Shown: in pieces, positions 2,523 to 37,277 of the stretch
Layout of the letters: each line of letters opens with the position of its first letter
Numbering within the stretch: position 1 is the stretch's first letter
DNA from: a virus
Lineage: Duplodnaviria > Caudoviricetes
IMG/VR virus record: IMGVR_UViG_3300037854_000066
Coordinates: 1 to 42,977 of that record
Length of the DNA: 42,977 nucleotides
Strand: one strand, 5' to 3'
The notes under the pieces: generated by a model
The model's input: the letters and a program-made list of their open reading frames with translations, nothing else
What the model was told of the DNA's origin: nothing
Database searches by the model: none
Position numbers and translations under genes: made by a program

Positions 2523-3423
2523 GCTAAAACCAAATCAATTCCACCTGCCATCCGGTGGACGGATCACTGAGCGACCGATCCTATTTCAGACGGATATGGT
2601 GAAGGCTATCCTGGACGGAAGAAAGACGCAGACGAGGAGGAATATCAAGAACGTAGAGCTGCGTCCCTCCAAAAATGAAGGTCGATTTAACTTCAGTTAT
2701 GAAAGGAAGACAAGATTTGAAGCAGGAGTTAATCTTACTCTTGAATCGTTAAACCTGCCATTTACTGGAATACTTGATTTATGCCCCTACGGCAAGCCCG
2801 GCGATCTGCTTTGGGTGAGAGAGACTTGGCTGAAACTCGATCGAGATCATGTAATCACTTCTCAATATGCCTACAAATCAAATGGAGATCCAAATACTGA
2901 AGATCTGAGAAAGGACTATATAAAATCTGGAAGAAACTACAAATGGAAACCCTCAATCCATATGCCCAAGGATGCGGCGCGGATCTGGCTGATGGTCGAG
3001 GAGGTACGAGTGGAGCGACTGCAGGATATCAGTGAGGAGGATGCGATTGCAGAGGGCATAGGTACAACCAATGGAATTCCAGTTGGATTGACCTCACACT
3101 ATTTAGATTATTTGAATAATCGAAACTGTTACTCCTCACCATTTAACTCTTTCCAATCACTCTGGGCCTCGATTAACGGGGAGGAGTCCTGGAATGCCAA
3201 TCCATGGGTATGGGTGGTGAAGTTTCGGGTGATTGCTAATAATGGATATCATCGCTTGGATTGCATTGAGTGGAACTATCATGAGGTAATGAAGATCCAT
3301 GCAGATAGAGAGAAGCAATCCTATGAGACTGCCGCTCCCGATTCTCGGGATCGCAGTGACGGTAAACAGATTCCGGTGAGTGAAGACACTCACCGGGGCG
3401 GAAAGGAGGCTGGCCATGAATGA
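2515..3423 (+). CDS. Widespread phage protein, ASCH/PUA-like (ERPILF..MV.AILDGRKTQTRR family), with repeat-derived C-terminal extension
   Basis: Motifs ERPILFQTDMVKAILDGRKTQTRR, CPYGKPGDLLWVRETW, WKPSIHMP, ERLQDISEEDAIAEG, NPWVWVV. Confidence 0.8.
   Translation: MGKLKPNQFHLPSGGRITERPILFQTDMVKAILDGRKTQTRRNIKNVELRPSKNEGRFNFSYERKTRFEAGVNLTLESLNLPFTGILDLCPYGKPGDLLWVRETWLKLDRDHVITSQYAYKSNGDPNTEDLRKDYIKSGRNYKWKPSIHMPKDAARIWLMVEEVRVERLQDISEEDAIAEGIGTTNGIPVGLTSHYLDYLNNRNCYSSPFNSFQSLWASINGEESWNANPWVWVVKFRVIANNGYHRLDCIEWNYHEVMKIHADREKQSYETAAPDSRDRSDGKQIPVSEDTHRGGKEAGHE
3325..3360 (+). repeat. REP-like palindromic element core (GAGACTGC...TCGCAGTGAC), in-frame in CDS
   Basis: 3325-3368 matches 30999-31042 at 42 of 44 nt. 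Confidence 0.9.
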
Positions 3424-10198: not shown

Positions 10199-10684
10199 AT
10201 GCCCCAATTAGACAAGAAGGCTGCCTGGCAGGTGGCCGAGCTCCAGGTGTCGTACAGACGCCATGAACCCCCATTGATTATCCGAGATTCTGAGGATGCG
10301 GCGAGCTGTCTGCACTCCTGTTGGGATCCTGATCTATTGGATATCCAGGAGCAGATCGCCGCACTCTATCTAGGAGTCAAGGGTGAGGTAATTGGCTATA
10401 GACTGATTAGTTCCGGCAAACTTAGCACTGCAAACCTGGACACTGCCCTACTGCTAAGCTGTGGGCTACTGGTCCGGGCGGATTCCTTTATCCTGGCGCA
10501 CAATCATCCCAGTGGAGACCCCAGTCCGAGCCGGACGGACATTCGCACGACGCTGCAGCTGTGCAAAGCGGCTGAGCTCGTGGGATTGGAGCTGTATGAT
10601 CATATTATACTAGCCCGGGATCTACGCTGGCACTCGATGGTGGATGAAGGCAACTTTGTCCCCCGGCGACTGATGCGCCGCTAG
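10199..10684 (+). CDS. radC: RadC-like JAB/MPN domain protein (copy 1)
   Basis: VAELQVSY, QEQ, ILAHNHPSGDPSPSRTD, LYDHII. Confidence 0.92.
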   Translation: MPQLDKKAAWQVAELQVSYRRHEPPLIIRDSEDAASCLHSCWDPDLLDIQEQIAALYLGVKGEVIGYRLISSGKLSTANLDTALLLSCGLLVRADSFILAHNHPSGDPSPSRTDIRTTLQLCKAAELVGLELYDHIILARDLRWHSMVDEGNFVPRRLMRR

Positions 10685-10724: not shown

Positions 10725-10798
10725 TTGGAAAAGTACACAACTAAAAACTTAGACACTTTACCCAAAATCGGGTAAAATTATTGTGCGTGAAAAAAGGC

Positions 10799-11041
10799 GT
10801 TACAATGTTACATTCTGTTGTCATATTAAAAAATATAGGAATAGAGACAGTATAGGGGGTTTTGGTCACAACAAAATGTAACAAATGACAACAAATCTTG
10901 GCTTTCAGTTTGTTACATGCAACATTGTTGCACAACAAAATGTAACAAATCGATTTGAAAATGTAACAAAAATGTTACACCGCTATTTGACTGAAAGTCA
11001 GAAAATTAGACCCTAAAAAAAACAGGCCACAACAATGTAAC
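10799..11041. repeat. TGTAAC/GTTACA iteron-like cluster, candidate replication origin
   Basis: 20-bp exact repeat CACAACAAAATGTAACAAAT at 10867 and 10931; partial copies at 10958 and 11028; inverted copies at 10799-10814, 10909 and 10971; AT-rich, non-coding. Confidence 0.7.
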
Positions 11042-11064
11042 GCGATTTCTAAGTTTGGCAAAAA

Positions 11065-12372: not shown

Positions 12373-13599
12373 ATGGCACGAAAAAACCAGAAATTCTATG
12401 AAATAGTCAATCAATCCGACGACAGCAAGTCAGTCGATATTCTGATGTATGGATCCATTCCCAGCTGGGATGAGGATACCTACAAGATGAAGAACTCAGC
12501 AGAATCCTTTGCCAAGGAGCTGAAGAACCTAGAGAAAGACTACGATCGGATCAACATCCACATCAATTCACCAGGGGGTTCTCTGTACCACGCCTTCCCC
12601 ATCTTCAATGCGATCCGCAATTCGAAGAAAGAAATCCACACCTACAATGATGGCCTTGCCGCTTCTGCCGGTGGCCTCTTGCTGCTAGCTGGCAAGAAGG
12701 TACACACCGCCAAAAACGGCATCCTGATGATTCACAATGCCATGGCTTGGGCTTATGGTAATTCTGATGATTTCCGGGAGACCATGAAAACGCTTGATAC
12801 CTATGATGGGATCATTGCGAAGCTATTTGCAGAGCGAACCGGGATGAGTGAGGAGGATGTGAAGGAGAAATACCTGAACTACAAGGATCACTGGCTGGAT
12901 GCGGAGGAAGCTTTGGAAGCTGGATTCATCGACGAGATCGAGGAATACGAGTCAGAGGATGCGCCACCGAGCAATATCACAGAGATGGCCTTTAACGAGG
13001 TCCTGAATCTGTATCGGGCAAAGGAGGAGAAATCAGAATCCTTCCTGGACAAAGTAGTGAATAAGGTGCGGGCTGTGATGGGGGCTGATTCTAAAGAGAC
13101 TGCCGCGTCTCGTACCTCGCCTCGCAGTGACGAGAGCGATAAGGAGACTGCTTCGACCGCAAAAGCGGATCTCGCAGTGACGGAACCACAATTGAACCAC
13201 AAACCAAAAACTGATATGGACTTTAAGAATGCCCTGGAGATCCTGAACAAGGAGAATCCAAGCGCCGAGGAGTTGCAGGCTGTCAAGAATGACATCACGG
13301 CTTTCACCGGTGCCAATGAGCGATTCACCGCAGAAGAGGTGACCGCAAAAGTAGATGCAGCTAAGCAGGAGATTCAGAATCAACTGGATGCTGCCAATAC
13401 CGAGAAGACCAACCTTGAAAACAAGGTGAAAGATCTCGAAGCGACTGTGAATTCCTACAAGGAATCCGGTGTGACTCCTTCGAATGTGAAGGATGGTAAG
13501 AAAGACCCGATCGATGCTGATGAGCAAGAGAACCTGCTCACAGAGGCTGACATCGAGATTCGCAACATGCGCAAGCAGATGGGAATCGCGGCAGAATAA
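12373..13599 (+). CDS. ClpP-like head maturation protease with C-terminal scaffold-like coiled coil
   Basis: IHINSPGG, DGLAASAG (Ser), LMIHN (His), WLDAEEALEAGFIDEI. Confidence 0.93.
   Translation: MARKNQKFYEIVNQSDDSKSVDILMYGSIPSWDEDTYKMKNSAESFAKELKNLEKDYDRINIHINSPGGSLYHAFPIFNAIRNSKKEIHTYNDGLAASAGGLLLLAGKKVHTAKNGILMIHNAMAWAYGNSDDFRETMKTLDTYDGIIAKLFAERTGMSEEDVKEKYLNYKDHWLDAEEALEAGFIDEIEEYESEDAPPSNITEMAFNEVLNLYRAKEEKSESFLDKVVNKVRAVMGADSKETAASRTSPRSDESDKETASTAKADLAVTEPQLNHKPKTDMDFKNALEILNKENPSAEELQAVKNDITAFTGANERFTAEEVTAKVDAAKQEIQNQLDAANTEKTNLENKVKDLEATVNSYKESGVTPSNVKDGKKDPIDADEQENLLTEADIEIRNMRKQMGIAAE
13096..13181 (+). repeat. Two tandem REP-like cores inside the protease linker
   Basis: GAGACTGC...CTCGCAGTGAC at 13096-13131 and 13144-13181. 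Confidence 0.9.
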
Positions 13600-16079: not shown

Positions 16080-16213
16080 AGGTGTGAAGCTATGAGTTGG
16101 TAGATGTAAATTCTTTGGGGCTCCGGGCGGGCTCTACGCGCTACACGGTAGCCTGCTTCGATCCCTGAGCCAGTCCTTACCATGGGAATGGTCAAATCGA
16201 TTTGAACAATATC

Positions 16214-16318
16214 GGAAGCTGATCCCGACACGAGGCAAGAGACTACGGCATAAAGCCCACCCACTATTCACATGCTTATTTATTCCGTTTCCTCTTGCAC
16301 TTAGTCGGTCTGAGTTCC
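16214..16318. repeat. Long hairpin direct repeat, copy 1
   Basis: 41-nt left arm and 40-nt right arm identical to copy 2; 24-nt unique centre. Confidence 0.92.
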
Positions 16319-16387
16319 GGGGGCTGATATCCAAATCAATTTCATTCAATCCTCCAGCGCAAGGAGTCTAAAGTCTGCACGGATATC

Positions 16388-16840
16388 ATGAAAACTTCCT
16401 CACACAGAATCGGCGAACTTAAAGTCATCTATCGCACTACTGCTTTGCCCTATCACAAGATCAGGAGCTCGTATGACACTTATGAGTTTCTAAAGAAGGT
16501 ATGGGATGAAGATCTGATTGAGTACATCGAACAATTCTGCATCATCCTGCTGAGCAGATCGAATCAAGTGATCGGCTATGACTTCATCTCGATGGGTGGC
16601 ACTGCCGGCACAGTAGTCGATGCCAAGGTGGTCTTTCAGACAGCACTTCTAGGTAACGCCAGTTCGATCATCTTGGCACACAATCATCCTAGTGGAAACC
16701 TCTCGCCTTCGGAGCCAGACAAACGGATGACTAGCCGAGTCTTTGAGATCGGTAAATCACTGGATATGCCAATTCTAGATCATATGATCATGACAAAAGA
16801 CGGATACTTCAGCTTCGCAGATGAAGGTATTATGAGATAA
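16388..16840 (+). CDS. radC: RadC-like JAB/MPN domain protein (copy 2)
   Basis: IGELKVIY, EQF, GGTAGTVVD, ILAHNHPSGNLSPSEPD, LDHMI, YFSFADEG. Confidence 0.95.
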   Translation: MKTSSHRIGELKVIYRTTALPYHKIRSSYDTYEFLKKVWDEDLIEYIEQFCIILLSRSNQVIGYDFISMGGTAGTVVDAKVVFQTALLGNASSIILAHNHPSGNLSPSEPDKRMTSRVFEIGKSLDMPILDHMIMTKDGYFSFADEGIMR

Positions 16841-16863
16841 GGGCTTCGGCCCTTTATTTATTT
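16839..16863 (+). terminator. Intrinsic terminator (UUCG loop)
   Basis: AAGGGC-TTCG-GCCCTT followed by TATTTATTT. Confidence 0.8.
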
Positions 16864-16904
16864 GACTTGGGGAAAGGCTTGGACGCATCTGTGCGCGAAA
16901 GTTA

Positions 16905-17008
16905 GGAAGCTGATCCCGACACGAGGCAAGAGACTACGGCATAAATCCAACGCTGAATACCAGGCTGGTTTATTCCGTTTCCTCTTGCACTTAGTCGGTC
17001 TGAGTTCC
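16905..17008. repeat. Long hairpin direct repeat, copy 2
   Basis: Arms identical to copy 1; 23-nt unique centre. Confidence 0.92.
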
Positions 17009-17066
17009 TGGTATGCCCGCTTACATATCCTCCCCGCCAGGAGGCGAAAGTAGGCGGTAGATTAGT

Positions 17067-17486
17067 ATGAATTACCTGGTCAAAACACACAAATTCGGAA
17101 CGCGGTACAAGGGGCCGCACTTCTTCGTCCTCAATCGTGGGCGCAATACAGGGAAAGTCCTGCATCAAGAATGCCCTAACTGCTGGGTGATTCAAACCGA
17201 TGAAGAAGAGACTGCCGAGCGACTGCAATACATCATCGGAGCTCTTCATATGTCTCATAAGATCCGGCGCATGCTGATCGGCTCGGTGATCATGTATGTG
17301 CGAATCTCAGACTTCAGAAAACTGCTGAAGAGCTACACCACGATTATCCAATTTGATGAGAAGTGGGATGCTGATTTGATTGCAATCCGAGAGGCCATCA
17401 AGCTACGCGATACCTATCTGCAGCAAAGGAAGCTCTTGGACATGCTATTGCAGGTTCGATATTACAATTTACTAAAGGGGCTTTAG
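17067..17486 (+). CDS. Conserved hypothetical protein, recalled as DUF6943-like
   Basis: HFFVLNRGRNTGK...CPNCW...LIGSVI motifs; family name from memory. Confidence 0.65.
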   Translation: MNYLVKTHKFGTRYKGPHFFVLNRGRNTGKVLHQECPNCWVIQTDEEETAERLQYIIGALHMSHKIRRMLIGSVIMYVRISDFRKLLKSYTTIIQFDEKWDADLIAIREAIKLRDTYLQQRKLLDMLLQVRYYNLLKGL

Positions 17487-17498
17487 GCCTCTTTATTT
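17473..17498 (+). terminator. Intrinsic terminator
   Basis: TAAAGGGGC...GCCTCTTTA followed by TTT. Confidence 0.65.
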
Positions 17499-17533
17499 GT
17501 CCGAAGCCTTGCAATTGCAAGTAATGATATTCG
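17498..17533 (+). promoter_or_regulatory. Candidate late promoter TGTCC-N23-GATATTCG
   Basis: Heads the packaging operon; spacer contains the palindrome TTGCAATTGCAA. Confidence 0.6.
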
Positions 17534-24824: not shown

Positions 24825-25387
24825 GCCAGCGAAGCTTTGGACCCGAATCAAGAGAATATTCCCCTGCTCCCAGCATCCGTAAGGAAGTGGCCGCGATCTA
24901 TCATGCCGAAGTAGGCACGCTAGAGATCGGTCGCAACAATCACGGACCCGGACCCAAGAAATACCTGGCATCCTGTGGACTGGATGAAGGCTTTGCCTAT
25001 TGCGCATGCTTTGTCAAGTGGGTGCTCGAAGCCTGTAGCATTCCCACCAAGGGTGGAAATGCCTGGTCTCCAAGTTGGTTTCCGGAGTCACGAGTGATTT
25101 GGAGGAATGGGAATGTAGTCAATCACGAGACTGCTTCGCTCCCTTCGTCCGCTCGCAGTGACGGAAAGCCACAGCAAGGAGATGTGTTTGGGCTTTATTT
25201 CAGCAAGCTAGGCAGAATCGGACATGTGGGCTTTGTGGATCAATGGGGTGGTCCAAGGAGCGACGACTGGGTGTATACGGTAGAAGGAAACACCAACGGC
25301 GAAGGATCCCGTGAGGGTGACGGCGTGCATGCCAGGCGCCGACTCAAACGAAGTATTCACCTGGTAGCTAACTGGATCGATCGATGA
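24752..25387 (+). CDS. CHAP-domain endolysin
   Basis: YCACFVKW (Cys), GHVGFV (His), TVEGNT; hydrophobic N-terminus. Confidence 0.85.
   Translation: MAHFHPTVFGILLGWFLTLCQPAIGQRSFGPESREYSPAPSIRKEVAAIYHAEVGTLEIGRNNHGPGPKKYLASCGLDEGFAYCACFVKWVLEACSIPTKGGNAWSPSWFPESRVIWRNGNVVNHETASLPSSARSDGKPQQGDVFGLYFSKLGRIGHVGFVDQWGGPRSDDWVYTVEGNTNGEGSREGDGVHARRRLKRSIHLVANWIDR
25127..25162 (+). repeat. REP-like core in-frame inside the endolysin
   Basis: GAGACTGCTTCGCTCCCTTCGTCCGCTCGCAGTGAC = ETASLPSSARSD. Confidence 0.9.
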
Positions 25388-30991: not shown

Positions 30992-30998
30992 CGTCATT

Positions 30999-31034
30999 GA
31001 GACTGCTTCTCCCGATTCTCGGGATCGCAGTGAC
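30999..31034 (+). repeat. REP-like core, intergenic
   Basis: Near-identical to 3325-3360; preceded by truncated CGTCATT. Confidence 0.9.
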
Positions 31035-31068
31035 GGTAAACACTACAAATAACATCTAACAATCTAGC

Positions 31069-37180: not shown

Positions 37181-37261
37181 CGTCATTGCGATCCCGATGC
37201 GTCGGGAGAAGCAATCTCACAAATGAGACTGCCACGGCTCGTCCCTCGCCTCGCAGTGACG
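37181..37261 (+). repeat. Full-length REP-like element in the tape measure leader
   Basis: CGTCATTGCGA...GCAATCTC...GAGACTGC...TCGCAGTGACG. Confidence 0.9.
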
Positions 37262-37277
37262 ATAAACCAATAAAGAA

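Follow-up and report, generated by a model that had tools for sequence, protein, structure and literature searches.

The two long imperfect hairpins described here probably act as promoters on single-stranded DNA: each is taken, with good confidence and on the evidence of sequence and predicted folds, to be an Frpo-type promoter for the Bacteroidota housekeeping sigma factor, which would drive radC in the first unit and a DUF6943 gene in the second. The promoter boxes are carried on the strand that faces away from the gene and, hence, the gene is likely to be on solely when this strand is single and folded. Both hairpins lie in the window, i.e. the whole stretch of DNA that was analysed (42,977 nucleotides). 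The window is a 43-kb prophage-like record with genes for an integrase, a ClpP-type head protease, a tape measure, an endolysin and a primase and with a weak portal match; neither a relaxase nor a reverse transcriptase was found among its 62 ORFs.

A first-pass annotation had described two units with identical arms around different centres, and this was borne out: the left arms (16214-16254 and 16905-16945) are identical over 41 nt and the right arms (16279-16318 and 16969-17008) over 40 nt, with tips of 24 nt in unit 1 and 23 nt in unit 2. The arms do form an imperfect hairpin, since both copies fold better than nearly all of 200 shuffles on both strands (DNA z -2.6 to -4.4). The distance from arm to ATG, given earlier as about 60-70 nt, is 69 nt in the radC unit and 58 nt in the DUF6943 unit; the RadC/JAB and DUF6943 identities hold (E 2e-35 and E 2e-29), and a terminator of its own for each gene stands by scan for radC and by visible sequence for DUF6943 (Table 1). 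Two points required revision. The flanks had been called unrelated; they carry function, the left flank holding the minus-strand -7 box and a further outer stem, and the hairpin boundaries had been drawn too narrowly. The centres had likewise been called unrelated; there is a weak homology between the two tips, with 44 of 2000 shuffles reaching their score, and both resemble the tips of other members of the hairpin family.

Table 1. Features of the two hairpin-gene units, in window positions
Feature	Position	Strand	Remarks
Flavo-1-like hairpin, stem-shortened	16116..16175	-	about 60 nt upstream of unit 1; aligns to the L121 homolog
Hairpin 1, full extent	16193..16341	-	folds on the template strand; 110 bits with model R1 (built with this copy)
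Hairpin 1, parts	invariant core 16235-16254/16279-16298; tip 16255-16278	-	outer stem, spacer stem, core and tip
Unit 1 -7 box position	16213-16206 (16206..16213)	-	GATATTGT; degenerate, predicted partly paired
Unit 1 -33-like TCTTGC	16235..16240	-	box consensus from PMC2483708, PMC7366714
Small leader hairpin before radC	16351..16375	+	CCTCC..GGAG, then AAAG
Stand-alone RadC/JAB gene, 150 aa	16388..16840	+	PF04002, E 2.2e-35; HxH and D motif visible
Terminator-like intrinsic hairpin after radC	16839..16864	+	found by terminator scan
Hairpin 2, full extent	16881..17033	-	template strand; 98 bits with model R1 (built with this copy)
Hairpin 2, parts	core 16926-16945/16969-16988; tip 16946-16968	-	
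Unit 2 -7 box	16904-16897 (16897..16904)	-	TAACTTTC; 1 mismatch; 21-22 nt past TTG
Unit 2 -33-like TCTTGC	16926..16931	-	
Small leader hairpin before DUF6943	17029..17055	+	
DUF6943 gene, 139 aa	17067..17486	+	PF22105, E 2e-29
Terminator-like hairpin after DUF6943	about 17474..17499	+	visible in sequence; not listed by terminator scan

The closest named relatives of the window RadC are Cyclobacterium/Algoriphagus proteins. Blastn of window positions 16100-17520 gave no match in phages or plasmids, and a single-protein scan of viral contigs with DUF6943 gave none either. The window has another RadC/JAB gene at 10199-10684, which is more divergent, has a terminator of its own and lacks a hairpin of this family; a search of the window with model R1 returned hairpins 1 and 2 only. 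Some further elements of the window may be recorded. A CCTCC..GGAG-AAAG leader hairpin precedes both start codons; its pattern matches 7/122 family copies (six in the prophage loci shown here, plus L244), L284 shows a leader hairpin too, and it is possibly a translation signal. Five REP-like palindromes (GAGACTGC..CGCAGTGAC) occur at 3324-3368, 13095-13139, 25126-25170, 30998-31042 and 37224-37268, some of them within ORFs. Between 1036 and 4140, GAAAGGAGGTG..ATG elements are repeated at the junctions of small early genes; the motif is Shine-Dalgarno-like, which is unusual for Bacteroidota. The AT-rich intergenic stretch 10740-11060, with several TGTAACA/TGTTACA repeats ahead of the head genes, is possibly an origin or operator region.

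Through the window RadC protein, a viral contig (L121) was identified that has both units in the same place; it reads GCAAAAG/CTTTTGC where the window reads GCAAGAG/CTCTTGC, and its outer stems differ yet pair. The search of the arms across Bacteroidota suggested in the first-pass annotation proved productive: the shared-core pattern gave 122 stretches in GTDB genomes (total estimated at about 130) and other cargo genes with them, 118 of the 122 being titled Bacteroidota and three being short contigs of bins from other phyla. The analysed set comprises 122 elements after orienting and deduplication, to which the window, L121 and L122 contribute five; L206 was left out on account of its ambiguous orientation. 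An exact scan for the right arm gave no matches, and a loose pattern scan of viral contigs returned about 2300 stretches, mostly chance, and was not used. With a covariance model, the element was found in 6/150 further Bacteroidota genomes (20 candidates scored per genome), and these copies show more paired core changes. Most genomes hold one or two scattered copies, and copy counts throughout are not independent because the copies are related.

The family core reads GCAA[AG]AGACTACGGCATAAA, a tip of 11-33 nt, and TTTATTCCGTTTCCT[TC]TTGC; it consists of 20+20 nt, is mismatched and near-invariant and encloses a variable tip, the invariance and part of the strand asymmetry described below being built in because the core was the search pattern. 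The covariation proposed as a check is present in both the core pair and the outer stem. At the variable core pair, 68 of the 122 copies have A-T and 52 have G-C, and in 2 the pair is broken; outside the search pattern, the left flank finds a better partner in the right flank of its own copy than in those of other copies in 89/122 cases (37/52 clusters). RNAalifold on 40 copies gives a single covarying column, the core pair, owing to the lack of alignment in the outer stem. The invariant mismatched core is conserved beyond promoter needs, and elements of the Frpo type are also able to prime and to stall second-strand synthesis (10.64898/2026.01.09.698686); both points speak for a hairpin that is mainly a single-strand origin, priming signal or replication roadblock, with gene transcription secondary. 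This is considered unlikely, as there is one copy per gene, each gene has its own terminator and the geometry directs polymerase into the gene, although the two roles are not exclusive.

The template strand folds more stably than the sense strand in 118/122 copies with DNA energies and in 104/122 even with RNA energies, and its outer-stem mismatches are mostly purine-purine. On the sense strand, pyrimidine-pyrimidine mismatches (161) outnumber purine-purine ones (59), without an excess of G-U (43) over A-C (39). This asymmetry disfavours the scaffold RNA on the sense strand which the first-pass annotation had offered as an option. It bears equally on a structured sense-strand RNA leader like the radC or Pedo-repair motifs, a reading that is quite improbable even though the element folds well as RNA (z about -4) and precedes radC-type genes, since it would leave the reversed -7 box unexplained and has no Rfam match: the Rfam comparison suggested earlier, including radC and Pedo-repair, gave nothing at the window hairpins at the gathering threshold or at E 10 and none at the element in 20 family loci.

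Housekeeping promoters of Bacteroidota carry TTTG at -33 and TAnnTTTG at -7 (PMC2483708, PMC7366714). The 3' arm of the template strand ends in TTTTGC or TCTTGC (TTTTGC in 68/122 copies), and a ≤1-mismatch -7 box lies at the expected distance on this arm in 67/122 copies as against 1/122 on the sense side; shuffled controls gave a mean of 8.0 and a maximum of 22. The typical distance past TTG is 21 nt. After clustering, the count is 28/52 for the template arm versus 1/52 for the sense side, and an unguided alignment returns the -7 box as the consensus. The box sits just outside the 41-nt left arm and is directed away from the gene in duplex DNA. A scan for sigma-70-type sites found none at the window hairpins.

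In the predicted folds of 28 representatives, the mean pairing, 0.65 just before the first T of the -7 box and 0.46 on this T itself, drops to 0.12-0.21 over the four positions that follow and then rises again, a dip that is partly an artefact because the copies were selected for a box on one arm only. A stem that ends at the first T, with the -7 box open, resembles a pre-opened promoter in these models. Unit 2 of the window follows this pattern, with the first T predicted to be paired and the remainder in a bubble. The unit 1 box reads TACCTTTG in the homologs L121 and L122 and GAACTTTG in L284; given its degenerate and, by prediction, partly closed box, the unit 1 promoter of the window may be weak.

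The spacing between the boxes distinguishes a folded from a duplex promoter. A ≤1-mismatch box at the standard linear distance is lacking in 55/122 copies. In a spacer test set of 126 copies (the 122 and four diverged phage copies), a box was found 15-56 nt past TTG in 107, and 19/126 have none there. In 70/107 copies, the linear spacer does not exceed 28 nt (mode 21), which fits duplex DNA also, and 58 of the 68 measurable short-spacer copies have a distance of 19-23 nt along the opposite arm. The other 37/107 have linear spacers of 30-51 nt, which exceed what a duplex promoter allows; measured along the template arm of the fold, the distance comes to 19-21 nt in 24 of the 31 measurable copies (six were not measurable) and in 10 of 15 sequence clusters, as against 2.9/31 expected for random box positions. 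In the predicted fold, the extra spacer sequence of these copies loops out. The long-spacer geometry thus implies function solely in the folded single strand, and the single-stranded promoter comparable to Frpo, one of several options in the first-pass annotation, is strongly supported by the template-arm boxes and the folded spacing. An ordinary leftward duplex promoter for antisense RNA beside an inverted protein-binding repeat is very improbable: the minus-strand -33/-7 spacing is right for duplex DNA in most copies, window unit 2 included, so some leftward transcription is possible, but the long-spacer copies do not fit, and the covariation, the variable tip and the link to the gene on the opposite side are left unexplained.

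Cargo was counted by a scripted downstream-ORF search of 78 genome copies with 3-kb flanks. A downstream ORF was found in 64/78: ArdC in 24, RadC in 18, SSB in 5, DUF6266 in 2, MutS_I in 1 and no family in 14. Hence, 50/78 copies precede a gene of these five families and 28/78 lack a recognisable downstream gene (14 without an ORF). Among the weaker, model-found copies, 11/15 have an ORF (RadC 5, SSB 3, DUF932 1, none 2). The hairpin usually lies 60-90 nt before the start codon, with one copy per gene. One locus (L186, 2564-4248) shows a DUF6943 gene and a 180-aa ORF, followed by a hairpin before a stand-alone MutS_I domain gene. ArdC-N, RadC and MutS-I have been described as early-conflict domains of mobile elements, the activity of RadC being merely hypothesised (PMC5512222). 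The early anti-defence expression suggested in the first-pass annotation fits this cargo (ardC, ssb, radC), whereas the expression itself we infer.

Relaxase-type genes (PF03432 and DUF5712, the latter of which we take to be a Bacteroidota relaxase) were compared with 45 oriented copies in 36 genomes chosen for long contigs, one G004 element being left out because its orientation was ambiguous. Such a gene lies within 20 kb of 13/45 copies (at most 0.8 expected) and within 110 kb of 26/45 (at most 4.5 expected; 20 genomes); 19/45 copies are not near any relaxase found. All 26 neighbouring copies match the relaxase in strand, though these are not 26 independent events because related elements share layouts. 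In the F-plasmid layout, a strand shared with the relaxase makes the transferred strand the template, and, from the relaxase orientation, the cargo genes would sit on the transferred strand. Genes for coupling proteins, MobC, ParA/Rep, ArdA and toxin-antitoxin systems lie beside some copies (149 ORFs at 36 loci).

The radC-DUF6943 order is found at the same site in 5/5 close prophages (L121, L122, L252, L284 and L286), the terminase being 71-79% identical in the four loci where it was fetched. All five have a hairpin before radC. The second hairpin, before DUF6943, was found by pattern or model in L121, L284, L286 and a short metagenome contig (L250); in L122 and L252, it is diverged and long-spacer, with the -7 box in a bubble. 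Identity to the window proteins is 48-62% for RadC and 32-50% for DUF6943, and the fold and boxes persist. In four distant prophage loci (terminase 40-46%), the fetched stretches held no radC, DUF6943 or hairpin. The fixed block therefore has the look of a single ancient acquisition that was retained, not a changing array. The identical arms with different tips are explained by the family-wide constraint on the core together with duplication or conversion between copies. The copies in L250 share one tip and have different outer stems. At least two prophages (L122 and L252) have an extra gene between radC and DUF6943. This 80-aa gene has its own unrelated long hairpin (L122 3030-3205, L252 8935-9110; z between -7 and -11), in which a bulge holds a reversed CATCTTTG box; from its modelled fold, this hairpin is probably a single-strand promoter of a second class.

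An attC-like folded recombination site of a gene-cassette array, raised in the first-pass annotation as a means of gene acquisition, would suit the long imperfect hairpin, the variable tip, the repeat-gene-repeat-gene layout and the tips that differ between phages while the arms stay alike, but is scarcely credible given that 0/122 copies have attC-type ends, that the gene order is fixed in the window and the five related prophages, that most genomes have one or two scattered copies and that no joint skipping a unit was seen in the contigs of four DNA runs (contigs cannot show absence).

Another hairpin, of Flavo-1 type, precedes the first promoter hairpin in the window, L121, L122, L252, L250, L284 and L286 and also lies ahead of three ssb-linked genome copies, always in the same orientation. 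In L121 (2439-2520), it scores 44.9 bits on RF01705 (cut-off 42 bits); the window copy is below Rfam detection. A match to a Flavo-1-like profile lies within 500 nt upstream of 6/83 copies, three of which had gone into the profile itself, and downstream of none. Flavo-1 may itself be a single-strand DNA element.

For the single-strand promoter, the following course is proposed. The freed minus strand would fold back, with its 3' arm serving as the non-template strand and its 5' arm as the template; the stem would extend to the first T of the -7 box, the remainder of which would form a pre-opened bubble. RNA polymerase would start at about 16330-16335 and 17020-17025 (predicted starts) and read each gene to its terminator, until second-strand synthesis switches the promoter off. 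The two-gene block would have been acquired from conjugative elements by an ancestor of the prophage clade and retained. We infer hairpin activity, an ICE origin and an anti-defence role of the cargo. Tailed phages are not known to have a single-stranded stage at entry; their DNA might become single-stranded when the lysogen's chromosome is transferred by conjugation, in replication intermediates, through resection or by supercoiling-driven extrusion.

The DUF6943 protein gives a weak structural lead. Its predicted model (pLDDT 68) matches a Methylase_S model at an Atlas TM of 0.73, which is under the naming bar, and aligns with 7eew_A 472-634 (VIA Z 5.3, rmsd 3.7, 117 residues aligned), the other VIA rows covering mostly the C-terminal helix only; Foldseek gave no match to the model at E 0.001, and neither did a PDB sequence search with the protein. 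The models hint at a likeness to half of a type I restriction specificity subunit (a target-recognition domain and a helix) which, if true, would suit an anti-restriction decoy role. It is conceivable, though we regard it as doubtful, that a clade of tailed temperate phages keeps single-strand-gated promoters as a sensor: when its own DNA becomes single-stranded, whether by replication, by nuclease resection or as the lysogen's chromosome is passed on by conjugation, host RNA polymerase would fire a JAB-domain enzyme and a half-HsdS-like type I restriction decoy, with a Bacteroidota factor reading the invariant mismatched core.

To our knowledge, single-strand promoters have so far been shown on enterobacterial plasmids alone, and the hairpin family would be the Bacteroidota version of such a promoter. 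The spacer inserts, whose geometry suits a promoter only in the folded state, amount to a built-in natural test. The hairpin would also mark the first-expressed genes of Bacteroidota conjugative elements, and DUF6943, DUF6266 and DUF932 thereby become anti-defence candidates. That a prophage clade has kept the hairpin leads to the question of when the DNA of a tailed phage is single-stranded long enough for transcription.

As for known systems, integron attC sites end in RYYYAAC ... GTTRRRY. They share with the Bacteroidota hairpin an imperfect hairpin beside a gene and a variable terminal part, but the latter lacks such ends, precedes a gene with promoter boxes and has a fixed gene content. 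The UG27 ncRNA arrays of Bacteroidota prophages similarly consist of repeated hairpins with conserved flanks and a variable centre; they are intergenic arrays beside a reverse transcriptase (10.64898/2026.09.22.753630), whereas here there is one hairpin per gene. The Rfam motifs radC (RF01754) and Pedo-repair (RF01715) and STAXI are structured elements before radC, ssb or anti-restriction genes, and for STAXI a function in single-stranded DNA was raised; the radC motif, however, is listed for Proteobacteria, and two supplement rows for Pedo-repair lack the present core (PMC2864571). Flavo-1 matches the neighbouring hairpin, not the promoter hairpin. In the literature covered, with most subscription papers and the supplements of PMC11541004 and PMC12672017 outside its scope, there was no description of the motif, of Bacteroidota single-strand promoters or of DUF6943; the published genome-wide Frpo search used sigma-70 boxes, and 'bacteroid' occurs 0 times in its main text (PMC11541004). 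Blastn against PLSDB plasmids gave no similar DNA, and sequence similarity to Frpo/ssi class 1 (Frpo1/2) was not found.

The closest parallel is Frpo itself. The stem-loops of F and IncI plasmids reconstitute promoter boxes, are active on single-stranded DNA and are shut off by second-strand synthesis (PMC9849209, PMC12672017). Both Frpo and the Bacteroidota hairpin are long template-strand stem-loops that reconstitute housekeeping promoter boxes, precede ssb and anti-restriction genes and are tied in strand to conjugative transfer. They differ in that the Bacteroidota hairpin, as a predicted promoter, uses -33/-7 boxes where Frpo has TTGACA/TATAAT and has an invariant mismatched core in place of an AT-rich UP element; it also accommodates spacer inserts by looping them out, and tailed prophages have kept it.
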